64,000 nt of DNA, taken from Cyanophora paradoxa CCMP329. Taxonomy: Eukaryota > Plantae > Glaucophyta. Numbering within the stretch: the stretch's first letter is position 1; each line of letters opens with the position of its first letter. Location: the NCBI GenBank assembly GCA_004431415.1, contig QPMI01000479.1, positions 116,175-180,174 of the forward strand, given 5' to 3'. Below, in pieces: positions 11,329 to 58,682 of the stretch. The translations under genes were made by a program, and so were the position numbers. The notes below the pieces were generated by a model. It was not told the origin of the DNA and did not search any database. It worked only from the letters and a program-made list of their open reading frames with translations.

Positions 11329-12707
11329 ACACATATTGAAAAACGAATTTAAATCCCTCGTTCATCTCGATCGCTTCGCGATCTCGATTCACTCTGGATT
11401 TAAATTCGTTTTTCAATATGTGTTAATTTAACTACTAAAATACATATTTATCGATTAATTTCTTTAACTTTTTATGCAAACTTTGTATAAATTAATGCAA
11501 ACTTTGTATTAAAAATGATAAACGCGTTTAATTTAATGCATATTCACGATTGATTCGATCGATATTATATCGATATATTATGTTCTTTGTCGATTACATA
11601 TATAACTTCGATTGATTAACATTAAACTACTTAAAGAACGATATAATCGCGATTAATTCGCATAAATTCGCATAAATTCGCATAAACTCGATATATCTCT
11701 CTGGTATTGAAGTAGACCACCGCCCATTCTGTATCGAAAAACGCAAAAAGTGTCACAGAGTTGCATCATGTCCAATTAAACAATCGATGGAATTGCGGAT
11801 TTACATTTTTGCACCGAAAAAGTGTCACAGAGTTGCATTATGTCCAATTAAACAATCGATCAGATTGCGGGATTTTCTATTGGAATATATCGGAACTGCA
11901 TCACGTCCAATTAAACAATCGATGGAATTGCGGATTTACATTTTTGCACCGAAAAAGTGTCACAGAGTTGCATGGTCTCCAATTGAACAATCGATTAGAT
12001 TGCATATGTTCTATAAAACAGAATAATTGAGATCAAGTGTGACAGGTAGTATTCAAATGATATTCAGTAAGAGATAGTTTTGTTTTTGAGAAAGTCAGTA
12101 AGAGGGGTGGAATGTCTGTGACGCCTGTGACGGCTGTGACGCCTGTTTTCAGAAGTCTGTCATTTTTGAAAATTTTAAAAAGTTTGAAAGTAGGTGTCAC
12201 AGGCGTCACAGGCGTCACACTCAATTAAATTAGGTGTCACAGCGAAATTGCAGACCATTTCCAGTAAGACAACTTCGCATTTTCGGAAAGGTGGATTAAT
12301 GGATAGTGTTTTGTAGGTGTCAGAGGTGTCACAAGACGGATTTCAGTAAGACAAGAATATATTTTTGAATATCTCAGTAAGAGAAAGAGATTCCATTTTT
12401 AATTGGGTGTGACGCCTGTGACGGCTGTGACGGCTGTTTTAAGAAGTCTGTCATTTTTGAAAATTTTAAAAAGTTTGAAAGTAGGCGTCACAGGCGTCAC
12501 AGGCGTCACAGTCAATTAAAGAGGCGTCACAGTCAATTAAATAGGTGTCACACCCGATTATCTGACCATTTTCAGTAAGACCATCTGAAATTCTGAATTT
12601 CTCAGTGTCAACTAACTCGGAAATCGCAATACTCTATGTTTCTCCGATTTCTCCAACCCTGAAAACACACCTGTTATTCTCTCATCTATCTCATGAGATA
12701 CTCTCGT
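11329..12707 (+). repeat. Left TIR of the inner element (hairpin 11329-11423)
   Basis: Reverse complement of 35879-37257; one mismatch noticed. Confidence 0.95.
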
Positions 12708-13013
12708 GGTTTTTCTCTCTGCTTCTAATCCACAACTGAATATATCAATCGCCAACATACCTTCATTTGAGTAACAATGAGCAGTGCAATGGCTCTCATC
12801 CAGCAGAAGAACCATTGCAAAACCAGGAGGAGAAATACCACCATCGAAAATCTCGCAATGCTTGTGAACTACTCGAATACCTTGCTCTTGAATAATAGTT
12901 TGCAAGAACTGCATTAACCACCTGGTTGTTGTCTCCAAGTCCTCCATTCCTACTGCTAATTGGGTTCTGAATTTGTAATCCAGCATCACATGGAAGCCTC
13001 GATGAGTATTCAT
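12612..13013 (-). CDS. speD: S-adenosylmethionine decarboxylase proenzyme
   Basis: Same protein as 5471-5872. Confidence 0.85.
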   Translation of the reverse strand: MNTHRGFHVMLDYKFRTQLAVGMEDLETTTRWLMQFLQTIIQEQGIRVVHKHCEIFDGGISPPGFAMVLLLDESHCTAHCYSNEGMLAIDIFSCGLEAERKTTRVSHEIDERITGVFSGLEKSEKHRVLRFPS

Positions 13014-13053
13014 TTATGAATAATTTAGAAAAATTAAAAACGCGAATGGTAGA

Positions 13054-13203
13054 ATGCGAACCATCTTAGCAAGAGTGCTACCTTATGAGTTGGTGGATAT
13101 CATTCTGCTGCACTACCACAAGACCTGTCCCAGCTGCTTTGACACATGCATAATCACAAAGGGAAAATGGGGAAAGATTCTCATTTCTCTCTCAAAGATC
13201 TAA
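13054..13203 (+). CDS. 49-aa F-box-like micro-ORF
   Basis: Copy of 5913-6062. Confidence 0.5.
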   Translation: MRTILARVLPYELVDIILLHYHKTCPSCFDTCIITKGKWGKILISLSKI

Positions 13204-13471
13204 TCGAAATATAATACTACTGGTTTATCATCTATCACGATTCCTGATGTCGTCTTTTTTCTATATGCATGAGAGGATTTCTTGTTGCATTCTCTGCATC
13301 CACTTCCCTTACATGATTAAATGGGTAGGTTTGCAGGATCTTGTTGCATTTAAGGCATCTAACAGAGACCTTCTCTTGTGCTTTCTTATAGACTGTCTCA
13401 CTATAATCGAATTTAGCATCACCATGAACCATCATTGCAGATTCTATGAATTTCTTTGTTTTATCATCCAT
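13200..13471 (-). CDS. DUF723-like zinc-ribbon protein (homopolymer indels)
   Basis: Copy of 6059-6331. Confidence 0.65.
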
Positions 13472-13498
13472 CCCTCTCTCTATATATACCTGAGATTT

Positions 13499-14328
13499 CT
13501 ATGGAGCAGTATCCTGTCCGAAAATGGGGAAGTAGCGATTTGTGCCGTAATATTCTGCATATGTATTCTGTTTTGCAATAGCATCGGTTCTCTCAGCATA
13601 GAGAATGCATTTGTAGATACCAAACCTGGTGGCTCTCACCAAGAACTGGTAATCTTCAAGACCGAAATTCACTCCATGATAAGCAATTCCGAAATTGTCA
13701 TATGGCGTGATCACAACTGCAATATTTGGGGTTCCACCCTCTACTTGACAGACAGCATAAACATCTGGTGGGATATCGACAACCACCTTGTAGTGGTCAC
13801 CAATCTCAACAAGAGAATCAACTACTGATGTCTGCTCATTCACAACAATTGGGAAGATCTTGATAATATATGGTGCATTCATACTGGGGACATAGGTGCG
13901 AATTCTGGTGTTGGGATCAATGGGATTGGGTTGATCATTTACGAAAAGAGGCGCACCAACAGCTCCACCAATCCGAAGACCATCACCAATATATGCTCCC
14001 CCGTTTTGCAGTTAATAGCTCCCGACCGAGATTCAAAAGAATAAGTAGAAAGAGGATCACCATAACTGTCTGGGTCTCCATAGTGGGCAGAAAAGTTTGC
14101 ATTTGTGACAAGGAGTTTCGTTGTCTTAACTATACCATTATTTTTATCACACCTGAGTTCTTGCAATCTCAGTTTGTGGGTGGAACCAAATGTATTCATT
14201 GTGGGTTGCACTTCTGTGGATTGGAGACCTTCTACATCATCAAAGGTAGCATGCTGCAAAACGTGATTTGCAGGTGCTGCTAATGAGAGTTGGGGTGTAA
14301 TAATTCGTTCTGGTATTGGGGCAGCCAT
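13499..14328 (-). CDS. 276-aa putative structural protein (C5/C6 frameshift near 14000)
   Basis: Copy of 6359-7189. Confidence 0.7.
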
Positions 14329-14351
14329 TTTACATTAAAGTGATATATAAT

Positions 14352-15205
14352 TTATGGGGTTGGGTCATCAATCACATCTGGTTCCTGGTAAAACCCTGTT
14401 GTGAAGATATCTGCAACGTTTACCCTCGAAGTGCCGAAACAGCTGCTATATCTGTCCTCAGTCCCATAATCATAGTATTGTAAACTCCAACCTCAGTTAC
14501 AAACAAATCATAGGTAAATGTCAAATTGTTATAAACACAATATCCTCGACCGAAATGGTTTGATGCTTGAACAAAGAATAGGTAATTATGACCTGTTTGA
14601 TTGTTGTTTGCTCTGCACATAGATAGCATTGCTGTGGGAAGCGGAATATTTCTTCTTACTCGATCAGTTCCTGTTATAATAACCAATTCCGAATTTTCAA
14701 GAGTGACAGAGGAAGCAACATAGAAATGTAGAAAAGGTTGCTGTGCAACTGGTGTATAGAAACGTATTCGTTGGGGATTCTCTACATTTTGTTCAAGAGT
14801 ATCTGGGACATCATTATACGAAATGGAGGATGAGAGTTGACCTGACACTCTGCAACCTCCCCCAATAAATGCTCCTCCTGATCTCACAGTAACAGCAGCA
14901 GTATTCTTGTCGAAATCTAGGGCTTTCAGGGCAACACTGTAAGCATCAGGACCTCCATTTGTAGGCTGGAAGAAGTTAGCATTGGTGACAAGAAGTCGAG
15001 TTGTTTTAACCACACCAGAATTCTTATCAGCTCTCAGCTCTTTTACTCGAATAATCGAATTTTTATCAAAGGAGTTACCATTGGAATTGGGTCTCTCTGT
15101 GGATTCTAAACCACGAACCTCATCATTTACTTCATGCTGGCGAAAATGCATTGCAGGGGATCCAAGGGAATATATAGGCAGTTGAACTCGATTATATTCA
15201 CCCAT
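14352..15205 (-). CDS. 284-aa putative structural protein (frameshift near 14424)
   Basis: Copy of 7213-8067. Confidence 0.7.
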
Positions 15206-15254
15206 TGCTTCTTTTACTAAGAAGGAAAGAAAAATAATGCGAAATATGCATTTA

Positions 15255-18200
15255 TTATGGGATTCCATATGCTGTCCAATGGATTGTGCAAGTAATACTT
15301 CGACTTTCAGATAGAGTAGGGGATGCTATGAATGTCACATAAATTGTTGTATAGGTAGATGTGGAGTTTGAGATTCCAATTCTAAAATCTACATCCCCGG
15401 GGTTTGTTGCAGGAGTTCCTTCAAGTGTGGCAGTTACAACAGGTGTCTTAGTGTAAAAAGCAGGATCCCAATTCAAAACCTGTGCATGCTGTGTTCTCTG
15501 ACCTGCACTTATAGCACCACTGTAAGCTTGAAATTTTCCTGACTTAAATCGTCTTTCTATATCATACCAAGTTGGAAGTTGGCTAATTGTATTGGTGGTT
15601 CCCGAATTCATTGCATAAAATGCCCTTGCATAAGCATTTCCTTTGCAGAGCAAGGTTTTATCATAGAAGTTTGCTGAATTGTGGAAGAACCAAGTTTCCT
15701 CATTTGTAGGCGATGCAGGGGCTACTATTTGACCTGATCCTACATACATAGTATTATTTGCAGTGATTGTATTGGCTGTGAATGGGTCTAAACTTGGGAG
15801 ATCTGTGATTTCTGATTTAGTATGAGTATGGGCGAAATCTGTAATATTTGCCTTTGTGTGAGTATGGGCAAAGTCGGTGATATCTGATTTAGTGTGAGAG
15901 TGAGGTCCGACAGTTGTAGAAGCTGTTGGTTTCCCATAAATGTTATCCCAATGCAAGAAGCCGCTATGTGAGGATACAGTGGGGTTCTTGCTCCAACCTA
16001 CAAGACCCACAAGATAAATCCTTCCTATTCGCCCTTGAACACCCACTTTACTCAGCCCTTCACAATTCACTCCGACATATTGCCTATACTCTACACTTGG
16101 GTCACTACCAGGAGAATAAGCATTTACTCTCGAAAGTGTATAAGAATTCGTTGATGGATAAACTCCCACAACATCGAAGTATCTGCTATTATATTGACAC
16201 ACATAGAAGATATAGCATGTTTTCATTCCCGCAGGGACAGTCCATAACATCTTGTAGCCACTACAATCTTCATCACCAGAAGCCCATGTGTTTGCTCCTG
16301 AGTAAGGAGATATAAATGTGAAAAATCTCCAATCGCCTGTGCGATCTGTTGAAAGACCATTTGTGGCATCAAAGTTGATAGGGGATGTGTATGTTGGTTT
16401 ATTTATCAGATCATCGTAATTTCCTGTCGTTGCAACAGTTGCAAGATTAGGTCTATCTGTGATATTTGACCAAGCATGAGTATGGGTTGCAGGAGGGAAT
16501 GTTAAAGGTTTATCTGTGATATTGTTCCATGCATGACTGTGAGTTTGAAGTGCAACACCCAATTCGGTTTCATCTATATAATTTTTGCTTTGCAGGTAAT
16601 CGTCTGTGACCACACCTGAAAGGGTCTCGTTGTGCAGGTTTTTAGCCGCCATTCTCTGATTGGCTTCAATAGCCCCACCTGATAGCGTTTTAATCCAAGC
16701 GATCTCAGCTTTACTGTAATTATCAGTTGGTTGCCCAACAAGTGGAATATAATTGAGTTTATCCCGAGTGAAAACTATCTTAGGTCTTGATCCATCCAAG
16801 CTGCTTACATCTGTCACATTCACATGGACAGCTGCTGAGAAGTCTTGATAACCCGCAGGATTGGAGGGAACACCGAACCCATCCTTTGGAATATCGTTTT
16901 TGTAATAGCTTGTCACATAGATATTCGGGAAAGTGTCACCCGGGTTAACATACGCCATATCTTGCACTCGAAATTGAGGCAAGCTTCGGACAAATAGAGG
17001 TCCTGTCATTGCACTGCCCGCATCAGCCCCTTTGAGGTGAACATAATGCTCATTCAAAATAGTTCTTTCCGCAATATTGCAGGATTTATAAAGGGAAACC
17101 CCCATATTCACAGGTTCGACCTTTGAGAATTCAGGTTGGTTATTGATCTCATCCCATGTATGCTCATGGGTTGTAGGTGGGAATATTGAAGGTCTATCTG
17201 TGATATTCGACCAAGCATGAGTGTGGTTTTGTATCCATCCCTGCACCACATTGGATGTTGTGTAGTTTGGAATTATAGCGTTTGAACCTACTATTAAATT
17301 TTTAATGTGGACATAGTCAGAAGAAATTCGCAGATTTTCGGGATAATAAAGCGATTGCGTTTTTGGGAAGCCGTAATAATCCTGAATATAGTATCTCACC
17401 CTTTGCTTCTCTTCAAACGTTAATGCTCTATTGAAAATGATGTATTCGGCTATATCACCTATGAAATAGTTAACACCCATCCTACTGAAAGTTGAAGGTG
17501 GAAGGTAATTTGTTCCTGTAAAGGTTCCTACATCTTGTCCTCTGATTCCAAAGGTTATGCTGTTTGAAGTTATGGTGGTGTCCCAATAATTGGCTGAATG
17601 GGAAGCATAATTGGTGTTCACTCGTGGGGCTGTGTAACCCACTCCATTACTTGTGAATGAATACAAACCAAATGATAATGACGATCCATACCCAAACTCT
17701 ATTTTATGGGTTCCATCAGGAGAACCAAAATCTAAATGAACTGTTTGCCAATTTGGTGCAGAGTAGTGACTACCTACATAGAACAGTGTCATGCCCTCTG
17801 ACCAATCAACGGATACATTATAGTTAATGAATGCCGAGGCAGTATATCCACCTGACTTTCTTACTACTTTTTGGTTGTTGAATAAAGGATTTGCTACGAC
17901 AGCACCACTGCTCCCGAAAAATGGGAATGTTATCCCTGAAATAAACGGAACAGCTGATGTTGCCCTATTGGGGATGAACTGTGACTGAGGATTTGTATTA
18001 ACAGGAAGCCCATCCATTCTCATTGTTAAAAGGCATTTCGGTGTGGTTTTGGCAGGGTCAGTGTTGGAAGTAATGGGGTAATAGGGTGGATCATAGTAGA
18101 CATCGATTTCTGTATTTCCGTCTCCTATTTTCAGCTTTCCCTTCACATTCAGGTTACATGTAACTGTAAGATTGCTACCAATCCAAGCGGATCCTGTGTT

Positions 18201-21200
18201 GCTACTGTTTATTGATTTCACTGTTCCATGCACATCCAAATTACTTGTGGTAAGATTGCTTGTTATAATAAGATTTCCATCTATTGTTCCCCCTGATTTT
18301 GGCAAGTAGTTGTTGAGCCACCCTAATGTAACATTACTACTTGTGAGAGGAGCCAAGAGTTCGTTTAATGTAGCTGCACTCACCTTCGAGACAAGCCATC
18401 CCTGAACAGTATTTGAAGAGGTTAGAGGAGCTATTTGAGCATTCACAGTTGCTGTATCAGCCTTAGTAGCAAGCCATCCCTGAACTGTGTTAGAAGAGGT
18501 TAGAGGAGCTATCTGAGCATTCACAGTCGCTGTATCAGCCTTTGGAGCCAACCAACCCTGCACCACATTGGACGTAGTGTAGTTTGGAATGGTAGCGTTT
18601 GAACTAACTATTATGTTCTCAATGTGAACATAATCAGCAGCGATTCGTAGATTGTCAGGATAATACAGTGATTGCGTTTTTGGAAAACCGTAATAATCCT
18701 GAATATAATATCTCACCCTTTGCTTCTCCTCAAATGACAAGGCTCTGTTGAAAATGATGTATTCGGCTACATCACCTATGAAATAATCGACTCCCATTCG
18801 ATTGAAAGTGGAAGGGGGAAGGTAATTTGTTCCTGTAAATGTTCCTACATCTTGTCCCCCAATACCAAAGGTTATAGCATTAGAAGTTATGGTGGTGTCC
18901 CAATAATTGGCTGAGTGTGAGGCATAGTTAGTATTAACTCGTGGAGCTGGGTAACTCACCCCATTACTCGTAAATGAATACAAGCCAAATGATAAAGATG
19001 ACCCATACCCAAATGCTATTTTATGGGTTCCATCAGGAGAACCAAAATCTAAATGAATTGTTTGCCAATTTGTTAATGAATAGTGACTGCCTACATAGAA
19101 CAGTGTCATGCCCTCTGACCAATCAACAGTCACAGAGTAGTTTATGAATGCCGCCGCAGTATACCCACCTGACTTTCTTACCACTTTTCGGTTGTTCAAT
19201 GCAGCATTAGCTGCAACAGTTCCACTACTTCCCCAAAATGGGAAAGTAATCCCTGAAATAAATGGCACAGCTGCTGTCGCTCTATTGGGGATGAACTGAT
19301 TGTAAGGATTTGTGTTAACAGGAAGCCCATCCATTCTCATTGTATAGAGGCATTTCGAAATGGTTGTAGCAGGGTCAGTGTTGGAATTAATTGGGTAGTA
19401 GGGTGTGTCATATGTCACATTCAATAGAGTTCCATAGGTTCCTAATTCGAAGTTGCTGGATACTTTCAGACTGCCTGCAATGGTGACATTATTACTTGTA
19501 TAAATGTTACTTGTGTAAAGGTTGCTTGTGTAAATATTACTATTAACTGTCAGGTTTCCTGTGATTGTCCCACCCACCAGAGGAAGATACTTGGATAATT
19601 CGGCTGCAAGTTCATTTTTAGTTACATAATTTGCGAGCATAGCAAGGGTGACTATATTCACAAGAACAACAGCAGTAAGGTAATCCTCTGTGACTACTCT
19701 CGAAATGCTCTCATTGTGTATGTTTTTTGCTGCCATCCTCTGATTGGCTTCCAGAACCCCACCATAATCTGTTTTAATCCATGCAAGCTCTGCCCTTCCA
19801 TAATTATCATTTGCAGTTCCCACTATGGGAATGTAGGAATACTTATCTCGACTGAAAACTATCATTGGTCTTGATCCATCCAGACTGCTCACATCTGCAA
19901 CATGAACCTGTATAGCTGCATTGTAATTTTGGTAGGTTGCTGGGTCTGTTGGAACTCTAAAAGTATCTGTGGGTATGTCAACCTCCATGTAGCTTGACAC
20001 AAAGATATTTGGTATGGTTGCTCCTGGTTCTGGTGGTGGATTATAAGAGCCTGGTAATGTTCTAATATGCAATGGTCCTATCATAGCTGAGTTTGCAAGT
20101 GTCCCTTCCACATGAACATAGTGGTGATTCAAAAAGATCCTTTCAGGGACATTGCAAGTCTGGTAAAGAGAAACTCCCAGAGTAGCAAGAGGCTCTACTT
20201 TTGCGAATTCTGGTTGGTCATTGATCTCATCCCAGGTGTGTTCATGGTTGCTTGCTGCAAACTTATCTGGTATCCCATCCAGATCACCCCAATCATGCCT
20301 GTGATCCTCTGGTGGGTATTTGTCTGGTTTACCCAAGATCTCATCCCAGTCATGGTTGTGATCCTCTGGTGGATATATCGCTGGTTTATTGTTAATCTGC
20401 TCCCAATCTGGAAAGAACTCCCAAATCTCTGGGCGAAATCCATCTGGTAATAATTCTTCATGGGGTTCATATGGTTGCTCATAATCAACAACTGGTGGTT
20501 CGAGACCATCTGCTAAATATTCCTCATGGGGTTCATAATTCTGCTCATACTCATACTCTTGTGGATCTAAACCATCTGGTAAATACTCTTCCTCATTGGG
20601 ATCATATTGATCATATTCATACTCTTGTGGGTCGAAACCATCAGGTAGGTATTCCTCCTCATCTGGAACGAATTGGTATTCGTCAAGCTCCAAAATATCA
20701 ATTTCAGGAGGTAAATATTGCTCATCAATTTGCTTTCTTGGTTCAATTATCGGTTTATTTCGAACCTGCTCCCAACTCACAATGTGTTGACCAAAAGGAA
20801 CTGTCTCATCTGCTGTGTATTCTCTTCCTGGTTGCTTTTTGGGTGTTAAATCTGGTGGATCCCATGGTAGTGGGAAGGGAACTGGGACAGGTCCATAATA
20901 CTCAAAGATCTCTCTTATGGTCTTCTCACTTACAAGTTTCTCTCCATTTGCATAGACATTGCTTCCATGGATATTTCGCCATTGTCTGGTTCTAATACCA
21001 AGATCTTTGGTGTTTGTCACCAAAGGTAAAAGGTGCCTATCCATTTCGACAAGGTCTGGGTGTAAATGAACTGTTACTGGTTGAGTGGGGCTACTGTTGA
21101 CAGTGATAGACGCCTTATTCTTTGCTGTATCACCAGGTAGTTGGAAACCGAATTGCGCATTAGAAGCCGAATTCGCCACAATATCTCGTGGATAAACATT

Positions 21201-21676
21201 GTTAGTGAACTCGATTTTGTTGGTTTCTCCATGGGGGCTATCTGTAATATTTCGGGAATTTGTGCAATTGCATTTGATCCTTCATTATAGATTCTCAAAC
21301 CACTCTGATGCCCACCCTTCTCATTTTGAACATTGAATATTAACCTACCACTATCGAATCGAGTTGGAATATCTGGATGGGTTCCACTGGTTTTCAGTTT
21401 TCTTGGTCTGCTCCTGGTTGCTTTAATCTGGGCTACTTGATTCGATTTCACATTCCCCATGCTGAAAGCAACACTCACATCCTCCTTTTCGGGATCCATT
21501 TCGTTTATTGAAAGTGCATGCTCTCTTGGGTGAGTCTTTGAGGGTTCATCTGCACTGTGATCAATTGAGATTGACCCTCTGGCTGTCAAGTTATCGAAAT
21601 TCACATGTTTGTTATCTGCCTTCCCTCTTCCTGATGAGGGAATGGTTTGAAGGTTTGCTGGGTAATTGAAACTCAT
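15255..21676 (-). CDS. Giant fibre/adhesin-like protein, ~2,140 aa (G5/G6 frameshift at ~21235)
   Basis: Phage tail-fibre-like HxHxWxxIxxKP and HTHTKSDITDF repeats, YLPxxGGTIxGNL, ATVATTGNYDDLINKP, two LamG-like modules (FIGD[IV]AEYIIFNRAL) and acidic EEYLPDG repeats. The N-terminus is continuous in the copy ending at 40470. Confidence 0.8.
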
Positions 21677-21725
21677 CCCTGTTTACTCTACTTATAGAGA
21701 TTTATTAAATTTGAGTTAAGTAAAG

Positions 21726-23267
21726 ATGCCCCTTCGTGTAATTCTCTCATTATCAGGTGGGGGAGCTCGTGGTATAATTATTACGAGATTGTTAAAAGAA
21801 ATCGAAACTCGAACAGGAAAAAGAGTAATTGACCTTGTTGATCTGGTGAGTGGAACATCCACTGGTGGGATAATTGCGATTGGTCTCAATGTGAAAAATC
21901 CCGAATTTCCAAACGAACCTAAACTTACTGCAACCGATTTGCATTCCACTTATCTCAATCAACTCCCCTTAATCTTTGCAAATCCCAGAAATATTATTGA
22001 TAATGCACTTTTCAACACCAAGTATGATGTGACCCCATTGGAGACAGCCATTCTCACTGTTACTGGTGAGTCTCTCATTCAAGACTCTCTCAAAGATGTA
22101 GTGATCACAAGTTTTGACACTGTGAGTATGAAGCCCATTTTTATCACCAATGATAACTCCTACAAATCCATCCCCAGCAAGATTGCTGCAAGATCCACCT
22201 CTGCTGCTCCAACATATTTCTCACCTGTGAACTATGATGGGATGTCTCTAATTGATGGTGCAATCTCAGGTAACAACAATCCCAGTGTCTGTGGTTACAG
22301 TCATGCTAAGAAGATCTATGATGATGATGATGATATAATTGTGATAAGTATATCCTGTGGTGAAGTCAATGAAACAGATGCTCCAAATGTGGGTTACACT
22401 TATGAAGATGTGAACAGCTGGGGCATCCTCTCTTGGATTGCTTCGACCTCTGGAAGTCCATTAATCAATATGTTGATGGCTGCAAGTGAACTCTCTGCTC
22501 TGGAAAAGATGCAAGAGTTTCTCCCATACAATGATGATCAAGGATATGCAAGATATTATAGACTCTCTGTTCCACTTCCAAAGACCATAGTAAACTCTTT
22601 GGATGATACCTCTAAGATCCCAGATATGATAGATGCAACCGAAATATATATAGCAGCAAACACTGTGATGATTGATAGACTCTGTGATTTACTGGTTGCA
22701 AATTACGAAATCAAGAACCCTGCAAGGTTCTATATATCATCCACTCTGAATAACATACCTCCCATTGATGCTAACTGGTATCTTCTATCAGATGGTGCTT
22801 TCACTGCTTCATCATCAAAAATTGGAAGGGAGGCATTTAAAGCAAGACCTTCTTTAACAGGTTGGGAGGCAAATGCATCTGCTCCTGATGGGATATGGAG
22901 TGTTCCCACTGAGTATCTCCAAGTATCCTTCCCATATATATTTGAGATAGCATCTATAATTGCATATGGTTCTGGTGTGACCAATGCCTTTGTTAAGACC
23001 TTCAATGTTGCAACATCACAAGATGGTGTTTCCTGGTCATTTATCAAGTATGAAGGTGTGAATAGAGTGTTCATGTGTGAAACCATTAATAATGCCCACA
23101 ATAGTGGTGATGTCTCATACAGTTCTGGGTTTCCCACCTCTATTAGAGACGTTTTCTATATTGGCTACCCTCTGAGGACAAGGTATATTCGTATTTATCC
23201 ACTGGTATATATAAATGCCCCAACTATGAGAGTGGATGTGACAGGTGCATTTATTCGAAGTGTATGA
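21726..23267 (+). CDS. Patatin-like phospholipase fused to an F5/8 type C (discoidin) domain
   Basis: LSLSGGGARG, GTSTG nucleophile, SAAPTYF, DGA. C-terminal YLQV...SQDGVSW...TRYIRIYP...MRVDV. Confidence 0.88.
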   Translation: MPLRVILSLSGGGARGIIITRLLKEIETRTGKRVIDLVDLVSGTSTGGIIAIGLNVKNPEFPNEPKLTATDLHSTYLNQLPLIFANPRNIIDNALFNTKYDVTPLETAILTVTGESLIQDSLKDVVITSFDTVSMKPIFITNDNSYKSIPSKIAARSTSAAPTYFSPVNYDGMSLIDGAISGNNNPSVCGYSHAKKIYDDDDDIIVISISCGEVNETDAPNVGYTYEDVNSWGILSWIASTSGSPLINMLMAASELSALEKMQEFLPYNDDQGYARYYRLSVPLPKTIVNSLDDTSKIPDMIDATEIYIAANTVMIDRLCDLLVANYEIKNPARFYISSTLNNIPPIDANWYLLSDGAFTASSSKIGREAFKARPSLTGWEANASAPDGIWSVPTEYLQVSFPYIFEIASIIAYGSGVTNAFVKTFNVATSQDGVSWSFIKYEGVNRVFMCETINNAHNSGDVSYSSGFPTSIRDVFYIGYPLRTRYIRIYPLVYINAPTMRVDVTGAFIRSV

Positions 23268-23715
23268 TACATCAGGACTTCTGATGTATGGTGCGCCAGA
23301 TTATGGCTTTTTTAACAGTAGCTACTGTATTTTCGCATTATTTTACTGTATGTTCCTTACAGTAGAAAGTAGCCGATTAATCGTTTTTTCGCAATATTTG
23401 TATGTAATATATACGTATATGTACTTGATACCTACACCATCGTGTAGATCGTTTCAAGCGCTTTCCAGCGCTATGTCGACGGTCACGATCTGATGATCTG
23501 GTGGTGAGATACGAGCGTTTGAAGATGCCGACAGCCCAACAGTGGGAACGTTAGGCGATGCCGACAGTAGTAACGCGAACCGTCAAGTATATATGCGCAT
23601 ATATACATTTTGACCACAAAATAGCGGATTGGTCGGTCGGGGACTCTGGGGCTCAGGGTCACACGAAATGTATGGTGTATATATATGATGAAACACGTGA
23701 TGTCATGACGTCATA

Positions 23716-23965
23716 CTGGTTGCGCGACCTGGTTGCGATGACGCAACCATGGTTGCGATGATGGTTGCGATGATGCAACCATGGTTGCGCTGGTTGCGCA
23801 ACCTGGTTGCGCAACCAATTTTTTTCCGATTCAGTGGTTGCGCAACCATTTTTTTCCCGATTGAGTGGTTGCGCGACCTGGTTGCGATGATGCAACCATG
23901 GTTGCGATGATGGTTGCGATGATGCAACCATGGTTGCGATGATGGTTGCGATGACGCGCAACCAT
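23716..23965. repeat. GGTTGCG/GCAACC direct and inverted repeat array
   Basis: Many TGGTTGCGATGATGCAACCA-type palindromic units. Confidence 0.9.
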
Positions 23966-23992
23966 TTTTCGATTTATAGAATTATCCTATTG

Positions 23993-24092
23993 ACCGAAAC
24001 TTCACCGAAACTTCACCGAAACTTCACCGAAACTTCACACCGAAACTTCACCGAAACTTCGCACCGAAACTTCACCGAAACATCACTGAAAC
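23993..24092 (+). repeat. 11-bp tandem repeat ACCGAAACTTC
   Basis: Directly visible; copy number differs at 42758-42890. Confidence 0.9.
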
Positions 24093-24219
24093 TCCATCAA
24101 TCTCGGTCATACATATGTATTTTATTACCAACTGCTCCGTTTTCAATTCTGAAAGCAGATTCGGAATCCTCTCGGCAGCAGCTATCAGGTTTCGTCGAGA
24201 CCGGGCACTAACAAAATAA

Positions 24220-24228
24220 AAAATTGAC
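24220..24228 (+). promoter_or_regulatory. AAAATTGAC putative early promoter
   Basis: About 30 nt upstream of the ATG at 24260. The motif recurs upstream of four other genes. Confidence 0.55.
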
Positions 24229-24259
24229 AAGGATTTTTTGGATTCTCTCAACTTCTGCT

Positions 24260-24502
24260 ATGGATCCCATCTACCAAGACCCTGCTATCATCCATGCTTC
24301 CCAGTCAGATTGGATACATGATTTCAAGACTGCTTTCTATTACAATTTCTTCATGTCACAGCCAGAGCATGTGAGACTGTTCTTTGTTTACAATTACCAA
24401 CTGGTTTCAAACCTTGAAACTTTCTTCTTGGAAATTATTGAAAAAGATAGACAAATGAGGAAAATTCGCCAGAGGTCTAAGAGATTCCGAAAACGTTGTT
24501 AA
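24260..24502 (+). CDS. 80-aa hypothetical protein with basic C-terminus
   Basis: Conserved in both elements with mostly synonymous changes; stop abuts the integrase stop. Confidence 0.65.
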   Translation: MDPIYQDPAIIHASQSDWIHDFKTAFYYNFFMSQPEHVRLFFVYNYQLVSNLETFFLEIIEKDRQMRKIRQRSKRFRKRC

Positions 24503-24503
24503 T

Positions 24504-25904
24504 CTATTTCCTCTGACCACTTCGTAAATTAAATCGAGTTTGGGGTGCAGTATATGTTTCCTTGGTGGTTGAAAAGTCATTATACCATCTCTGACTGTTA
24601 ACTTCTGATAATTTCTGGGTTCCTGCTATGGTCAACTTCTTCAACTCTTTCTCTACTCTGCCCTTCTTTTGTGCTCTTGCTTCTGTGAGGGGTTCTTTTG
24701 GAACTTCACTTGCTTTTTCTATGCCCTCCTTTCTGATTGCTGAATCAACCCTGGCTTCCTCTTTTGCCTGTTCAAGGGCATCCACTGTGGGAGTTTCATG
24801 ATACTCAACACCTTTAATGGGCAGCAGTTCATGAAAAGCGAATCTACCATCAACTATCTCACCACTGGGACTTCTGATTCTGAATTTGAAGCCCTCTCTG
24901 CCCTCCACACTATAAACAATTCGAGACCAATTAACACCCTGCTTTGCAAATGGATTCTTTTCAACTTTCACTCTCACAAACATTCCAGGTTTCAGAGCAT
25001 CAAGATACTCAATCGATTTCTTGAATCTCTGATCCTCCATATTCACTATCTCTTTGTAGTGGGCTTCTGTGGTCTCTGCTGGTTTTCTCTTGGTTGCAGA
25101 GTGGATGGTATTATTATAATTATACTCAATATCACCCAACACATCAAAAAATCGGGCAGTATTATTTGCAATGCAGTAGTTTGTGATCAATCTCTTGATC
25201 TGTCTGTTAAAGGCTTCAATCCGACCTTGGGTTCTGTGATCTGCAACATCACTTAGTTGATGCTCAATGAATTTCGTTCCCAAATAATCTGTGAATAACA
25301 CATTGGTAAATTCGCTTCCACTATCACTCTGAATGCGAACAATTGGTCTGGGGACTCTCTGTTCAAGTTGCTTGAATGCTGCAAGTGTAGTAAGAGCACT
25401 CTTGTCTCTCATTGGAATTATGAACCCTGTTCTCAGGGTTGATTCCATTGCACTCATAAATGTATCATAACCATCATTCTGCTTTTTGTATGCAGGAAAG
25501 AAGAGCAGATCAATCACATAGGTATCAAGGGGTTGCCTAATTGGAATCATGGGATCTCTCTTTCGAGATAGGGTGGGTGCATTAATCTGGACGACCTCCT
25601 GCTTATCATACCACTCTCTCATCTTCTTGTAGTTCTCCTCTGGTAGTTCCTGTCTCATTGCAGTAAATCCCTTGTAACCTGTTCTGGGATCATAGAACTT
25701 CTTAGCAATCTTCGACTCTTTTGGTGCTGTCTCAGCTGGGAGGGTCTCTGGAATTAATTGCTTGACCATCTCTGATCTTTTCAATATTCGACTGCTCTTC
25801 TCCTCCACTGGAACTGTGATGGGCAGGATATTCCCTCGATCTTCAATTGCCTCTTTTCTCACAATTCTTGGTGGTTGTCTCAATCCTATTTGTGTAGAAG
25901 GCAT
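24504..25904 (-). CDS. Polinton-type retroviral-like (rve) DDE integrase
   Basis: FYDPRTGY, YVIDLLF, IQSDSGSEF, GRIEAFNRQIK, YNNTIHSATKRKP. Confidence 0.92.
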   Translation of the reverse strand: MPSTQIGLRQPPRIVRKEAIEDRGNILPITVPVEEKSSRILKRSEMVKQLIPETLPAETAPKESKIAKKFYDPRTGYKGFTAMRQELPEENYKKMREWYDKQEVVQINAPTLSRKRDPMIPIRQPLDTYVIDLLFFPAYKKQNDGYDTFMSAMESTLRTGFIIPMRDKSALTTLAAFKQLEQRVPRPIVRIQSDSGSEFTNVLFTDYLGTKFIEHQLSDVADHRTQGRIEAFNRQIKRLITNYCIANNTARFFDVLGDIEYNYNNTIHSATKRKPAETTEAHYKEIVNMEDQRFKKSIEYLDALKPGMFVRVKVEKNPFAKQGVNWSRIVYSVEGREGFKFRIRSPSGEIVDGRFAFHELLPIKGVEYHETPTVDALEQAKEEARVDSAIRKEGIEKASEVPKEPLTEARAQKKGRVEKELKKLTIAGTQKLSEVNSQRWYNDFSTTKETYTAPQTRFNLRSGQRK

Positions 25905-26087
25905 CTTTACCTTATCTCTCATATAATAAATGCAAGAGTCTGTGTGGAAAGAGAACACAATTCCAAACTATTTTGCAATCGAGCCCAATGACCCTGGATT
26001 AAGATGTATTTGGCTGCTGCATTTAATTCGCGGTTTATTACTTCTTGGAGAGCGAAACCAAAGAAAAAGAAAGATTAATGAAGTAGA

Positions 26088-26723
26088 TTAGAGCCCAAAT
26101 GGAATGCTGTGAATTCCATCGTCTAATATCTTCCTTTTGCTATCGAGTTGGTTTAGAGCCACCCTTCTGCTCTCCAAATCATATAGGTTGTGGTCTTGTC
26201 TTCGCTTGTTTACTACTGCTACTGTTTTGGTGATGCCTTCAAACAGGCATCTCTTGAAATCATCAAAGTGAACCTCTTTGGAGGAAGTCCCACCGAAGTC
26301 AGGTCAACAAATGAAGGTCAACCGAGTCTTAATTGCTCTCAGGTCTTGGAGTTTCTGTCTGAGTCTCTGAGGTAGAGTGGGTGCAATTCTCTCCAAGAAT
26401 TCAATCCCATCTTGGATAACCTCCCCTCTTGCTCGATAGGTTAACCAAGAGTATGCTTTGTTCATTGCTTCCCCATCTTCAATCTCTGGTGCAATCGCTC
26501 CCAACCTTAAACCTTCATCCCTGAATTCCTCCATTTTCTCAAAACGATCATACAGTCGATTTGTAATTTCTGTGAGTTGAGATAATCTTGGTCTCCTATC
26601 CAGGATTGCTGCCTGGCGATCATATTCGAATTCTGTAATATCACCAGTAACTAAAAGGGTTCCTAAAAGACCGAGTATTTCGTTTTTCTTTTCTTTGATG
26701 ATTCTATTTGATTGGCGGGGCAT
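26088..26723 (-). pseudogene. pPolB remnant (2,660-bp internal deletion plus 14-nt filler)
   Basis: Both ends match 44868-48148; junction at 26293-26306. Confidence 0.93.
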
Positions 26724-26779
26724 CTTTTACTTTAAGGGAACATATTATTTTGGGGCGTTTTAAACGCATTTCCCATTTT

Positions 26780-26971
26780 TCAGGTTCTAATGATTCGCAC
26801 ATTCGTGCCTTTGGGGACATATACATTAACTGTGTCGAGTCTGCTTGCATAAACACGCTTCTTTTGATAGGTTCTACCATAACCTGCTCTGATCTTTGCA
26901 ATATAATCCGCCACCTCTGCAATATCATTCTTTTCGACAAGCTGCTGCCGAATTTCATCAAAATAATCCAT
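26780..26971 (-). CDS. 63-aa hypothetical protein upstream of pPolB
   Basis: Identical protein in both elements despite nucleotide changes; AAAATTGAC upstream. Confidence 0.6.
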   Translation of the reverse strand: MDYFDEIRQQLVEKNDIAEVADYIAKIRAGYGRTYQKKRVYASRLDTVNVYVPKGTNVRIIRT

Positions 26972-35867: not shown

Positions 35868-35878
35868 TTTTTGGCGAA

Positions 35879-42890: not shown

Positions 42891-43050
42891 ATATCGGTCA
42901 TACATATGTATTTTATTACCAGGTGCTCCGTTTTTAAATCTGAAAACAGATTCGGAATCGCCACGATAGCGCCAATCAGGATTCGTCGTGATCGGGCACT
43001 TACAAAATAAAAAATTGACAAGGAGTTTCTGGATTCTCCAAACTTCTGCT

Positions 43051-44867: not shown

Positions 44868-47800
44868 TTAGAGCCCAAATGGAATGCTGTGAATTCCATC
44901 GTCTAATATCTTCCTTTTGCTATCGAGTTGGTTTAGAGCCACCCTTCTGCTCTCCAAATCATATAGGTTGTGGTCTTGTCTTCGCTTGTTTACTACTGCT
45001 ACTGTTTTGGTGATGCCTTCAAACAGGCATCTCTTGAAATCATCAAAGTGAACCTCTTTGGAGGAAGTCCCAGACATCTTTATTTTATCAAAGGTCTCAG
45101 TTCTGAAAGCATAGAGTTTCGATCTCAGACCTACATACTCCACAATCTTTGCATTTGGAAACTCGTTTTTATATTTACCTGGAATCAAACGATTGCTCCT
45201 ATCAAAGAGAGGGTGGGTGGGATCATAATTACTGCAATCAAGGTGTCCAGCAATTCGCTTCATCTCATTATTTAGATCATTGGTATGCAGCAGGAGACAG
45301 AAAGAATCTGTATCATGGAATAGTAGCTCTGCTGTTTCCCAAGTTCTCCTCACCACATCATAAAAGAACCTGCTATTGTGGAGTTTCGCGAAATCCAGCA
45401 CAAAAGCACCAATTGCAACAGGTTTATCTAAGTGAACATGCTTGGAATACATCTCAAAGGCAACAGCATTTTCGTTTAATACATTGGTTGCCTTGATGAG
45501 TGGACTTGCAGCATATTTCTTGCAGAGTTTCTCACTGTTAGCAATCTTAACCACAGAGCGACCCCTGCATGATTCGAGGCATTTACCATAGATTGCATTG
45601 TTCATTAATTTAAAGAAGTCACTCTCGAATCTGGACATAGATTGGCGCCTCAGTTTCGTATTTAGATCAATATAACTCTTCATAAATGCAGAGGTTGCAA
45701 ATGAGAGAACCCTGTGAACCTTCGTGATTATAATACCTTTGCTCACAAGATAGACCAAGAGAGGTTGGGAGATCACATAGTTGTTTTTGGGTGTGAATGT
45801 TGCTGTGAGTTTGGGGTCTTTGCTTATCTTCTCACCTGTGATATCCAGTAGTTTTCGTTGATACTCACCCAGCATTTCGGTGGTGACATGTTCTTTATTA
45901 ACTACAAGTGGAAAATCATAATGATCTGTGAGAGTGTGTGGGTATTCCAGGTCTACTTCAATAAAGGCACTTCGTCCTGGGGTCTCTTTAAGTGCCTCTG
46001 AGACATCTTCCCATCGAAAATCTCCAATGGGCAGTTCTTGACTGAGAGCAAAACCATACAGATTATTTGCATCCAAGAGAACTATATGGTCATCTGGGTT
46101 TTCCACCTTTGCATATCGAGTAGGCATTGTAGCAAACCCACCTCGAATTGCCCTCTCAATAAATTCGTATTGCCCTACATCACTGATCTGCTCAATCTTT
46201 GCTCTGGTGTAAATGAGCATTGCATCCCAGGATAATCCAGGAGCCGAAACATAGTTGGCAGGATCCAATCCATATTGGGAAAACGCCAATTCTCGGAATG
46301 TCTGGAATTTACCCATTAGATCACTTGCATCCACTGCCTGGAAGTCCATGAAGTGCGAAGCATCTATGAATTTCCACATGCCCCATTGCAGGGAGAGGTA
46401 TTGGTCGAAATTCTTGCTCAGAATCTCAACACGAAGTTTATCATCTTGCTGTGCAATTTTGCGGAATATTTCGTGTCCACATTCATCCATGTGATCCACC
46501 ACAATTGCTACTTTGGTTTGCTTTGAGATTCTCCTGTGGAGGTTGCAGTTTCGGCATGCTTTCCCAATAAATGCTCCTGATTGATGACAATGGTCTCTCA
46601 CTGGGAAATTCTCATGGGTAAATCGTTCAGCACAGATATAACAGTGTTTAGTCATCTTGTATTTTGCTTTCTGCTCCTCTGTGAGTGGGTGCATTGGAAT
46701 ATTGGTGAATAGAGTGCGGATTACTTGGGGTCTGATCTCTGTGAGAGTGGTAAACAGAGCACCAAGTGGATCTGATCCCTCGAAATAATGAGAGATCACC
46801 TCATCCCCCATCACAACTGTTAAAGAAACCGATTTGACCTCTCTTTTACTGCGGTTCTCATCAATTGGAACCGAGTGACTGTCCATTTTTACATAGCAGA
46901 TAGTGGGAAGCCACACAGTTTTGCGAAGGTGTTGAAGCCCAAATGCAATGTGACTTCCAGATTTCGGGCATTTACCTTTGCTCTCCCTCCAATCAATGCA
47001 GCGATTCGCTTCTATATGAACATCCAGCTTCTCCTGAGTTCTGAAACGAGACAGACAGGTCTCACAGTAATAAATGCGACCATCATGGGCTTTATCAAAG
47101 GTGGTTTTCAGAAGTCTACTCAGAGACATGATGGTGATATAATGCCCTCTATCATCCTCTTCGTTTTCGATTAATAAAAGGTTAATCTTGGTCTTTCTCC
47201 TGGGGTTGCTGGATTGATGGAGAGGATAGAAACACTGTGCTTGATTATCTGCACCATAAATGTTGATACTCAGTTCAGGGTTCTGCTCCTCAAATCGATC
47301 AATAACCTCTGCATCACAGGCAACTGGAAACTGGATGCCTTCGAAATTGAGTTCGTTTAACCATCTTCTATACTGGCTGGGTTCATTGCTCTTGTGTTTA
47401 TTGATGTCCTTTCGGTGCAGGTAAGCCAAGATTGCATACTTGAAGCAGTCTTGACCATCAATATTCTTGACATTCACAGTTGCTCTCTTTAATCCAATCC
47501 ACTCAGGTGTTGAGAAGAAGCAACCACCCACAGGAGCATAAGACATTATAACCACTCTCAGCATCTCGATGCGATCCAGTCTGTAACTGTCCACCTGCAT
47601 CATCTGTTCCTGCATTGCTTGAAGTGCATTTCGCAGTTCAACATCAATATTTCGAGATCTTGTGATGACAAAGTAATCACTATAAATGAACTTGGTGATC
47701 CACACCCTTGGATCACTCACTTTGGTGAACTTACAAATGAAGGTCAACCGAGTCTTAATTGCTCTCAGGTCTTGGAGTTTCTGTCTGAGTCTCTGAGGTA

Positions 47801-48148
47801 GAGTGGGTGCAATTCTCTCCAAGAATTCAATCCCATCTTGGATAACCTCCCCTCTTGCTCGATAGGTTAACCAAGAGTATGCTTTGTTCATTGCTTCCCA
47901 TCTTCAATCTCGGGTTCAATTGTTCCCAACCTTAAACCTTCATCCCTGAATTCCTCCATCTTCTCAAAACGATCATAGAGGCGATTAGTAATTTCTGTGA
48001 GTTGAGATAATCTTGGTCTCCTATCCAGGATTGCTGCCTGGCGATCATATTCGAATTCTGTAATATCACCAGTAACTAAAAGGGTTCCTAAAAGACCGAG
48101 TATTTCGTTTTTCTTTTCTTTGATGATTCTATTTGATTGGCGGGGCAT
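44868..48148 (-). CDS. polB: Protein-primed family B DNA polymerase, ~1,093 aa (C3/C4 frameshift at ~47897)
   Basis: LLDANNLYG, FKLMNNAIYGK, HDTDS, GLRSKLY. Endonuclease-VII-like insert (CYIC..RDHCH..ACRNCN) and N-terminal DCF...GHY region as in Polinton PolBs. Confidence 0.93.
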
Positions 48149-56046: not shown

Positions 56047-56074
56047 CTTCTTTTATCTATAAACATATATTAAA

Positions 56075-57007
56075 ATGATTCGGCTGGTCAATATAGATAG
56101 CAGAGACCGATCAGATGGACAAATAGAAAACTCCTACAAAGTTTCACTCACAACCCCAGTGACTAAACCAAGAGAATGTCGAGTTTTGTATGCAGAAATC
56201 CCCAACAGCATCTATAACTCCATTGGAACAGACCACCTTCTTGTCAGATTCTACTACCAAGGCATCTCTGAAACCAAGCAGGTCTTCCTTCTCCCAAGTG
56301 GTTACATAAATCAAGGTCATTTCGGGGTCACCACTCCATATAATTATGGTCTGAATTTCACCTTTACTGGGAGCAACAATCTCACATATGCATTCAAGGT
56401 CTACTACAACCCTACCTCCTACAAATTGGAGTTTTACAGTAATGTTCAATTCGAGATGGTAGCATCTACACAGAGATTGGGTAAACTTCTTGGTGTGAGT
56501 TCAGTGGAGTGGGTGGCTTCCACTGAACAGATTTACGATTTCCCAGAGTCTGCAAGGTCTTTATATGCCCCCGAGAATTTCCTTTATTTCGCAGGAATAC
56601 CAATCACCCCAAACCATCCCCAATGGGGAATCACATTCACAGGATATGAATTCGAGGCATCTCGCTTAAACTACAAGTTAGAAGCTTCCAAGATGACAGA
56701 TATGAATGCAGAACAGTATTTATACATGCACATTAAAGAACTCTCCCCATTTGCTACAAACCACAATATTGTCCCACAATCTCAACCACAGAATCAAGGG
56801 GCGATTCTCAGATTGCAATTAAGTAAAGATATTGGACAGTATGTTTATCACAGTGGAGAGCACAGTGAATACATAAAAATAACCGATCGAAACCTTGTGA
56901 TTAGAGAGTTAACAGTTGAGTTTCGCGATTATTATGGTGATCTTGTAGATATGAATGGAATTGACAACTCATTCCAGTTGGAGTTCTTGGCTATTGGTAA
57001 TGATTAA
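56075..57007 (+). CDS. Minor capsid (penton-like) protein 2
   Basis: IDSRDR and DMNGIDNSFQLEF motifs. Confidence 0.8.
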   Translation: MIRLVNIDSRDRSDGQIENSYKVSLTTPVTKPRECRVLYAEIPNSIYNSIGTDHLLVRFYYQGISETKQVFLLPSGYINQGHFGVTTPYNYGLNFTFTGSNNLTYAFKVYYNPTSYKLEFYSNVQFEMVASTQRLGKLLGVSSVEWVASTEQIYDFPESARSLYAPENFLYFAGIPITPNHPQWGITFTGYEFEASRLNYKLEASKMTDMNAEQYLYMHIKELSPFATNHNIVPQSQPQNQGAILRLQLSKDIGQYVYHSGEHSEYIKITDRNLVIRELTVEFRDYYGDLVDMNGIDNSFQLEFLAIGND

Positions 57008-57293
57008 ACCGATCCTGATAGAAGAACTCCCCATCTGTCTCGAAAATATTAAGAATGGGACTCTTTCGATCTTCTGTATACCATCGGCGAATTGTCTTAT
57101 CCCATTTAGCACCATTCTTTTTCAAGAATCTACAAAGAGTTGATCTCCTTGTAATTCGCAATCCCATCTCTTGAAAGATCTCATAATGATCTTGTATTCT
57201 TTTCACAATCAAGATGTAAGTCCCATGGAAATTGTGATATTGCTGGTTAATCGGCATGTTTCCTTTACAGCATGATGGGAAATCGTTTGTCAT
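56991..57293 (-). CDS. DUF5710-like small protein
   Basis: Copy of 35565-35867. Confidence 0.6.
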   Translation of the reverse strand: MTNDFPSCCKGNMPINQQYHNFHGTYILIVKRIQDHYEIFQEMGLRITRRSTLCRFLKKNGAKWDKTIRRWYTEDRKSPILNIFETDGEFFYQDRFNHYQ

Positions 57294-57304
57294 TTTTTGG
57301 CGAA

Positions 57305-58682
57305 ACGAGAGTATCTCATGAGATAGATGAGAGAATAACAGGTGTGTTTTCAGGGTTGGAGAAATCGGAGAAACATAGAGTATTGCGATTTCCGAGTTAG
57401 TTGACACTGAGAAATTCAGAATTTCAGATGGTCTTACTGAAAATGGTCAGATAATCGGGTGTGACACCTATTTAATTGACTGTGACGCCTCTTTAATTGA
57501 CTGTGACGCCTGTGACGCCTGTGACGCCTACTTTCAAACTTTTTAAAATTTTCAAAAATGACAGACTTCTTAAAACAGCCGTCACAGCCGTCACAGGCGT
57601 CACACCCAATTAAAAATGGAATCTCTTTCTCTTACTGAGATATTCAAAAATATATTCTTGTCTTACTGAAATCCGTATTGTGACACCTCTGACACCTACA
57701 AAACACTATCCATTAATCCACCTTTCCGAAAATGCGAAGTTGTCTTACTGGAAATGGTCTGCAATTTCGCTGTGACACCTAAATTAATTGAGTGTGACGC
57801 CTGTGACGCCTGTGACGCCTACTTTCAAACTTTTTAAAATTTTCAAAATGACAGACTTCTGAAAACAGGCGTCACAGCCGTCACAGGCGTCACAGACATT
57901 CTGCCCCCCTTACTACTCTTCTCAAAAACAGAAATATATCTTACTGAATATCATTTGAATACTATCTGTCACACTTGATTTCATTTATTCTGTTTTATAG
58001 AACATCTGCAATCTAATCGATTGATCAATTGGAGACCATGCAACTCTGTGACACTTTTTCGGTGCAAAAATGTAAATCCGCAATCTCATCGATTGTTTAA
58101 TTGGACGTGATGCAGTTCCGATATATTCCAATAGAAAATCGCGCAATCTCTTCAATTGTTTAATTGGACATAATGCAACTCTGTGACACTTTTTCGGTGC
58201 AAAAATGTAAATCCGCAATTCCATCGATTGTTTAATTGGACATGATGCAACTCTGTGACACTTTTTGCGTTTTTCGATACAGAATGGGCGGTGGTCTACT
58301 TCAATACCAGAGAGATATATCGAGTTTATGCGAATTTATGCGAATTTATGCGAATTAATCGCGATTATATCGTTCTTTAAGTAGTTTAATGTTAATCAAT
58401 CGAAGTTATATATGTAATCGACAAAGAACATAATCTATCGATATAATATCGATTGAATCAATCGTGAATATGCATTAAATTAAACGCGTTTATCATTTTT
58501 AATACAAAGTTTGCATTAATTTATACAAAGTTTGCATAAAAAGTTAAAGAAATTAATCGATAAATATGTATTTTAGTAGTTAAATTAACACATATTGAAA
58601 AACGAATTTAAATCCAGAGTGAATCGAGATCGCGAAGCGATCGAGATGAACGAGGGATTTAAATTCGTTTTTCAATATGTGT
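57305..58682 (-). repeat. Right TIR of the outer element (hairpin 58588-58682)
   Basis: Homologous to 35879-37257, with multiple substitutions mostly in 57670-58460. Confidence 0.95.

Follow-up and report, generated by a model that had tools for sequence, protein, structure and literature searches.

The 64,000-nucleotide window analysed here (contig QPMI01000479.1 of assembly GCA_004431415.1, positions 116,175 to 180,174 of the forward strand) comes from the glaucophyte Cyanophora paradoxa CCMP329 and contains two copies of a virus-like element, one of which is inserted in the other. We interpret the element as a multi-copy endogenous Polinton-like virus (PLV) of C. paradoxa, in which one copy, devoid of most of its polymerase gene pPolB, interrupts the fibre gene of another, and we give this interpretation a probability of roughly 80%. 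The window displays the nest itself, a 6-bp target duplication, terminal inverted repeats (TIRs) and a virus gene set with its catalytic motifs. An earlier interpretation of the letters alone (the sequence-only reading) had described the span 11329-58682 as two copies of a virus from a possibly undescribed lineage.

The nested copies and their ends

Self-comparison and the junction sequences delimit a complete, TIR-bounded inner element of 25,929 bp (Table 1), which is flanked on both sides by the 6-mer AGTAGC. This 6-mer occurs as a single copy at the intact site in the inner element's own fibre gene (18465-18470), and a further copy lies at 4182-4187. The outer copy's fibre reading frame continues into the TIR of the inner copy, and the 6-mer is present on both sides of it; the inner copy is therefore placed within the fibre gene of the outer one. 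To the right of the inner element, positions 37258-58682 begin in mid-fibre and are 96.2-97.5% identical to 18465-37257, with an additional 2,660 bp of pPolB. To the left, positions 1-4187 align with 13920-18470, minus a deletion of ~0.36 kb. Both outer parts are distinct in sequence from the inner copy, and 82 of the 89 substitutions that separate 1-3679 from it fall within 1000-1999 (against 14919-15918), which corresponds to the fibre tip (C-terminus; 209 of 220 amino acids identical) and the adjacent open reading frame (ORF). The two parts are the halves of one outer copy, whose left TIR would sit ~2.6 kb upstream of the window and whose right end is followed by the host 6-mer at 58683-58688. 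Since the copies are nested, the span 11329-58682 joins the left end of the inner copy to the right end of the outer one. The genome length of ~28.6 kb proposed for the virus follows by simple arithmetic (25,929 + 2,660 - 14). In two of four runs (X1 and X10) short-read contigs end at 18471, the last base common to the empty and the filled site. The element has a GC content of 41%, the flank beyond 58682 one of 54%.

Identity between the outer and the inner copy is patchy, with zero-mismatch blocks beside an ATPase gene at 95%, and this pattern, together with the clustered differences, suggests recombination among copies. The segment 4188-11328 duplicates the left part of the inner element and may be either an assembly loop or a recent unequal crossover. 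A loop, which would make this segment and no other an artefact instead of real DNA, is slightly favoured, since the repeat is near-exact and the 506 bp preceding the insertion site, identical in both copies, invite one, although an unequal crossover inside the 506 bp would yield equal sequence. Positions 11329-37257 and 37258-58682 are indeed direct near-repeats, but the layout of the sequence-only reading, two independent tandem copies with the second left-truncated, is extremely improbable: the second "copy" opens in mid-fibre at the doubled 6-mer, and the left part that it lacks is found at 1-4187, so that the target duplication rules this layout out unless long reads contradict the assembly.

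The TIRs of the inner element differ at a single base, and the outer right TIR is 98.2% identical to them. An identical 95-nt sequence is found at each of the window's four TIR ends and folds into a hairpin whose outer stem measures 30 bp; the folding energy is -32.9 kcal/mol, compared to -4.7 +/- 2.0 kcal/mol for base shuffles (0 of 500 as low). The asymmetric centre of the hairpin is present in a single orientation at all four ends, which are not independent of each other. Hairpin transfer often leaves two hairpin orientations. Near-identical TIRs, the perfect target duplication and intact catalytic motifs support the recent activity that had been proposed. A related palindrome of ~130 bp made of 9-bp repeats is present in two copies per TIR and in one copy upstream of pPolB, the latter possibly being a replication origin.

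Row gene_58741 in Table S2 of PMC10120064, a C. paradoxa capsid of a different family, starts with the exact 29-amino-acid translation of the hairpin end (58595-58682). Judged from its sequence, the entry is chimeric: an end of the present element family adjoins or interrupts the capsid gene of a different PLV family. The row supports C. paradoxa as the host and points to a second insertion of this element family into another viral copy.

Gene content of the element

ORFs of the element were compared with Pfam (31 ORFs), PHROGs (19) and NCBIfam (16 proteins), complemented by motif checks. Family matches, motifs or, for the capsid, a published relative bore out the Prim-Pol/D5, rve integrase, A32 ATPase, capsid, fibre, lipase and S-adenosylmethionine decarboxylase (AdoMetDC)-like genes of the sequence-only reading. 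The same is true for pPolB, which has a Pfam match and is whole in the outer copy, while in the inner copy a 14-nt filler, for which there is no full-length source within the window, replaces 2,660 bp of the gene. The first 480 amino acids of pPolB were modelled from a 6-row alignment (predicted local distance difference test, pLDDT, 68). In structure comparisons of this model, residues 1-120 resemble Y-family little-finger domains (Z 9.2, root-mean-square deviation 2.9, 106 residues aligned) and residues 128-256 resemble OTU domains in many rows (OTUD1: Z 7.0, deviation 3.1, 107 aligned). Foldseek against PDB gave nothing at E 0.001 and weak Y-family rows only. All six alignment rows retain the OTU cysteine and histidine (here C149 and H250). 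Thus, as far as the model goes, pPolB is predicted to carry a terminal-protein domain and an OTU-fold protease, an architecture that is given for pPolB in 10.1101/2024.03.18.585575.

Compared to four full-length relatives, Exo I and Exo II of pPolB are altered and ~100 amino acids around Exo III are missing (4 of 4 relatives), whereas the polymerase motifs A-C are intact. By this alignment, the pPolB of the outer copy has lost its proofreading motifs. An Endo VII-like insert (46500-46660) retains an RDHCH motif and is also present in pPolB relatives. T4 endonuclease VII cuts cruciforms, so that, speculatively, the insert could act on the terminal palindromes. The pPolB of mavirus has an exonuclease remnant only, and a superfamily 3 helicase (S3H) is encoded alongside (10.1101/2024.03.18.585575).

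The capsid protein has no match in any of the three family collections, and sequence searches of the PDB with the capsid and the ATPase yielded nothing useful. Its relatives number one among 7,999 candidates and two among 1.84 billion protein representatives. The 61%-identical C. paradoxa protein (Table 1) has an HHpred capsid match of 98.5% in Table S2 of PMC10120064, and a C. paradoxa capsid in that table agrees by eye with 68 of the first 80 residues. Both relatives adjoin Capsid_N/Capsid_NCLDV clusters in the Atlas (score 0.98), of which 12-18% of the members carry the family. On sequence grounds, the capsid seems to fall in no named group. The two pentons of the sequence-only reading could not be confirmed. 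They are plausible candidates that adjoin the capsid gene and look like paralogs (25% identical in alignment), yet they have no Pfam, PHROG or PDB match, and a comparison with a presumed penton of an IMG/VR contig (L001, see below) reached an hhalign probability of 0.5%.

A maturation protease had been reported as not recognisable. This holds for the adenain/Ulp1 type, for which no match was found in the Pfam, PHROGs and NCBIfam scans of the element ORFs, with a remote homologue not fully excluded; it does not hold for proteases in general, given that pPolB residues 128-256 are modelled with an OTU protease fold. Across 253 six-frame segments, the adenain/Ulp1-type pattern Q-x(2-6)-CG with an upstream H-aromatic pair matched within TIR repeats only. 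The 244-amino-acid ORF was rejected as a cysteine protease because it contains no cysteine. PLVs are mostly without a maturation protease (PMC7805220; likewise 10.1101/2024.03.18.585575).

The fibre gene of the outer copy (37234-40470) is a single frame up to the insertion, and its product has phage tail-fibre matches and tail-fibre repeats in PHROGs. The gene contains an internal duplication of 860 bp (17235-18095 and 18552-19412, 85% identical), with the insertion site between its halves. Several ORF breaks fall at small indels relative to short-read contigs and are likely assembly errors; for this reason, frameshifts as a sign of gene decay were rejected. For the A32-like ATPase, one relative was found among 388 candidates at E 1e-10. 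Viral homologues of AdoMetDC are able to use arginine or ornithine in place of AdoMet (PMC9992855), so that the AdoMetDC-like enzyme may act on any of the three. The interval between lipase and integrase (23700-24100 and 42500-42900) contains short-repeat arrays, first GGTTGCG-type 12-13-mers and then an 11-mer with ~9 copies in the inner and ~12 in the outer element, which are possibly binding sites. A shared promoter motif was not evident by eye upstream of 20 ORFs. Two runs guessed to be RNA cover the stretch thinly and have no bearing on expression. Contig word depth over the element was ~30-50x the depth in flank contigs, with similar values for pPolB and helicase; such depth neither represents copy number nor ranks genes and was not used. 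The flank itself (58683-64000) is GC-richer and abounds in local repeats and short palindromes; around 62809 there is a long run of C, and no gene was recognised.

Table 1. Features of the nested elements in the window (positions in the 64,000-nt stretch)
Feature	Positions	Strand	Basis or remark
Outer element, left part	1-4187	.	Differs at fibre tip; ~0.36-kb deletion
Direct duplicate of 11329-18470, 7,141 bp	4188-11328	.	3 substitutions, 7 single-base C/G indels
Target-site copy, left, 6 bp	11323-11328	+	Also 4182-4187
Inner element, pPolB internally deleted	11329-37257	.	Self-comparison, junctions
Left TIR of inner element, 1,379 bp	11329-12707	+	95-nt terminal hairpin 11329-11423
AdoMetDC-like pyruvoyl decarboxylase, putative, 133 aa	12612-13013	-	AdoMet_dc; ESH, SCG motifs
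Small ORF	13235-13471	-	Weak endonuclease/HNH family matches
Three ORFs of 127, 129 and 282 aa	13499-15268	-	129 and 282 aa paralogous, 44% over 106 aa
Giant fibre, 200 + 1,929 aa	15255-21676	-	Insertion target 18465-18470
Patatin-like phospholipase + F5/8 type C fusion	21726-23267	+	GGGARG, GTSTG, DGA motifs
rve integrase	24504-25922	-	D138-D200-E236, D,D(35)E; Pfam weak, E 0.002
14-nt filler replacing 2,660 bp of pPolB, inner copy	26293-26306	.	Self-comparison
5' remnant of inner-copy pPolB	26304-26723		ORF comparison
Internal palindrome of 9-bp repeats, related to TIR copies	27100-27247	.	Sequence
Prim-Pol (AEP) + D5-like S3H, 787 aa	27324-29687	-	Pfam Prim-Pol, D5_N
244-aa ORF, no cysteine	30572-31306	-	Sequence
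A32-like packaging ATPase	31335-32117	-	Pox_A32 PF04665, E 2e-11
Major capsid protein, 458 aa	32180-33556	-	61% identical to C. paradoxa protein published as capsid
Candidate minor capsid protein 2, 310 aa	34649-35581	+	Beside capsid gene
100-aa ORF	35565-35867	-	Weak DUF5710 match
Right TIR of inner element	35879-37257	-	1 base differs from left TIR
Target-site copy, right, 6 bp	37258-37263	+	Junction sequence
Outer element, right part, whole pPolB	37258-58682	.	Right TIR 57305-58682
pPolB, outer copy	44868-47891	-	Terminal-protein domain, OTU protease (C149, H250), Endo VII insert, degenerate exonuclease, motifs A, B, C intact
Candidate minor capsid protein 1, 336 aa	55036-56046	-	Split at 33958-34620 in inner copy

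Relation to known elements

Endogenous viral elements of C. paradoxa have been catalogued before, with the same capsid cluster and the same gene families as in the present element (PMC10120064, PMC12220804). PMC10120064 lists 366 capsid matches in C. paradoxa, which form two clusters, both in an unnamed "iterative HMM" block (Tables S2/S4), while its available main text does not name the species. Among the 156 glaucophyte elements in Table S6 of PMC12220804 there are 139 with Pox_A32, 49 with DNA_pol_B_2, 40 with D5_N, 8 with Prim-Pol, 85 with rve, 89 with lipase and 66 with AdoMet_dc; its nine protease columns contain no match, and MCP-POL and MCP-VIR account for 2 and 0 of the 156 elements, respectively. 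This tally is given per group and does not show the genes joined in one element, which per-element records may already do. The main text notes discoidin-patatin fusions. AdoMet_dc, recorded there for cryptophyte PLVs as well, receives no discussion in the available text. Neither account, as far as available, describes anatomy, nesting, hairpin ends or pPolB domains. In PMC8502044 C. paradoxa contigs are mentioned once and the accessible supplement gave no match. A dedicated description or placement of these elements was not found in the literature, where most subscription journals lay outside the search. The element thus belongs to a catalogued but undescribed PLV family: the undescribed status suggested in the sequence-only reading stands in that no describing or placing paper was found and the capsid could not be placed in a named group, but capsid cluster and gene tally are already on record.

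By its features the element is Polinton-like, with a capsid (via the 61% identity to a listed capsid), an A32 ATPase and an integrated 25.9-kb copy with TIRs. It also has features of Polintoviricetes, namely rve and, in the outer copy only, pPolB with terminal-protein and vOTU domains, yet no Ulp1/adenain protease. Mriyaviruses have no integration gene and 35-45 kb, whereas here rve is present and the genome is ~28.6 kb; among the scanned ORFs there was no family match for mriyavirus-type HUH or VLTF2/3.

The element shares rve, a pPolB with terminal-protein and vOTU domains, an exonuclease remnant, a separate primase/helicase, TIRs and target duplications of 5-6 bp with mavirus and low-GC endogenous mavirus-like elements (EMALEs), and by analogy it would work most like mavirus in replication and integration. 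Virophages differ by a distinctive capsid type and a maturation protease; the present element gave no Pfam match to the former and no match to the latter in the family scans (MCP-VIR is 0 of 156 in glaucophytes; PMC12220804). With Maverick-Polintons it has in common rve, a 6-bp target duplication and TIRs. Its pPolB is 29-32% identical to insect-type relatives, with which it shares the Endo VII insert, and the top viral fold match is a Drosophila-associated adintovirus protein. It differs from them by the undetected Ulp1 protease, the lost proofreading and an extra AEP-S3H, and capsid similarity to them is not detectable. Virophages of Halocafeteria seosinensis combine pPolB with a D5 primase-helicase, and Halocafeteria virophages and PLVs share with the present element terminal palindromes next to target duplications and mutual nesting (10.64898/2026.07.28.741278). 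There, the palindromes are mainly found on non-pPolB elements, whereas here they occur also on the pPolB-bearing copy, and host and capsid are different. On the features examined, the element qualifies neither as a canonical Polinton nor as a virophage.

As each unusual trait has a precedent, the hybrid gene set does not define a new lineage, contrary to what had been proposed: pPolB, primase/helicase and rve together are the set of mavirus and low-GC EMALEs (PMC8547959). In addition, 28 viruses with Polinton gene sets are spread over at least 8 clusters (PMC7805220), and according to a 2026 framework preprint (10.64898/2026.06.19.733378), which in its available part does not mention Cyanophora, replication modules switch often.

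IMG/VR and metagenomes were scanned for relatives and free copies with searches that depend on exact short words and have little power to detect distant relatives. In IMG/VR, none of 3 and none of 155 capsid candidates, none of 43 ATPase and none of 9 helicase candidates matched, nor did the terminal 25-mer (0 matches); in metagenomes it was none of 296 capsid and none of 359 ATPase candidates. The pPolB scan of IMG/VR yielded one of 57 (contig L001), 35% identical in the best segment, which shares no other protein with the window element at E 0.01. Contig L001 carries pPolB, rve and an A32 ATPase at 1317-14474 in a Maverick-like arrangement.

It might be that the element represents a deep glaucophyte lineage with a capsid module nearer to Nucleocytoviricota-like small viruses than to Polintons or Aquintoviricetes and with an animal-Maverick-type pPolB that was acquired sideways. 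The Capsid_N/Capsid_NCLDV clusters of both capsid relatives, the 2 of 156 glaucophyte elements matched by MCP-POL profiles (PMC12220804), the published HHpred matches of C. paradoxa capsids, which are capsids of nucleocytoplasmic large DNA viruses (NCLDVs; PMC10120064), and the isolated pPolB likeness to contig L001 would fit. However, capsids of most Polintons and PLVs resemble those of NCLDVs (PMC10120064), so that this likeness is not diagnostic, and HUH, VLTF or similar matches are absent among the scanned ORFs; we consider such a lineage somewhat unlikely. Rather doubtful is the wider proposal that this deep lineage is glaucophyte-specific and stands apart from all named PLV groups, that besides an NCLDV-like capsid it has a proofreading-dead animal-Maverick-type pPolB, combined with a primase-helicase independently of mavirus, that its hairpin ends allow pPolB-less copies to replicate still, and that its integrase favours other AT-rich viral copies, disabling their fibre or capsid genes. 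An insertion preference for other viral copies may exist, as two cases without a control would have it. With a capsid outside all named groups, a proofreading-dead pPolB with a separate helicase, as in mavirus, would have arisen twice.

Proposed life cycle and significance

Under the preferred interpretation of a multi-copy PLV, the free linear genome would be copied by the protein-primed polymerase, as modelled on mavirus, and the built-in OTU protease might cut the terminal-protein domain off pPolB. The proofreading-less polymerase likely relies on the D5-like primase-helicase for DNA unwinding. The A32 ATPase would package the genomes into a double jelly-roll capsid, which would mature without an adenain/Ulp1 protease. 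Attachment and entry would be the task of fibre and phospholipase, and the decarboxylase likely contributes to the polyamine supply. The inner copy was likely placed in the fibre gene by the element's own integrase and would depend on polymerase from sister copies. Dependence on a giant virus is plausible.

It could also be that the replicase is being switched, with pPolB decaying and pPolB-less copies replicating themselves from terminal hairpins as primers by means of Prim-Pol/D5. The inner copy lacks most of pPolB and still has TIRs one base apart and a perfect target duplication, proofreading is lost, several replicase types occur in the glaucophyte tally (PMC12220804), and in Halocafeteria terminal palindromes accompany non-pPolB replication genes, where dual sets are read as transient (10.64898/2026.07.28.741278). 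Nevertheless, we regard a switch as improbable: the outer copy retains its polymerase, terminal-protein and OTU parts intact, one hairpin orientation is found at the four window ends, which are not independent, and at the one readable end in the PMC10120064 row, and the deletion may postdate the insertion, or sister copies may supply pPolB.

Several observations weigh against the interpretation of a nested, multi-copy PLV. The contigs of the other two runs (X2 and X3) pass 18471 unbroken, the left end of the outer copy and its target duplication lie outside the window, and among the joints listed no read joint spans the pPolB deletion. The Atlas recognition values of both capsid relatives are below the reliable range, the single-sequence capsid model is of low confidence (pLDDT 36.8), and the OTU Z-scores are mid-range (5.5-7), albeit consistent over many rows. 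No free virus emerged from the IMG/VR and metagenome word scans.

The element is not a new kind of system. Glaucophytes branch off early within the plant supergroup, and the 366 capsid genes of C. paradoxa (PMC10120064, Table S4) have been counted, while no description of them was found. The presence of a natural pPolB-less copy beside a whole one makes a question from the literature testable, namely whether terminal palindromes can prime replication without a protein primer. If the capsid lies outside all named groups, the family would constitute a new branch of small DNA viruses linked to giant-virus origins.

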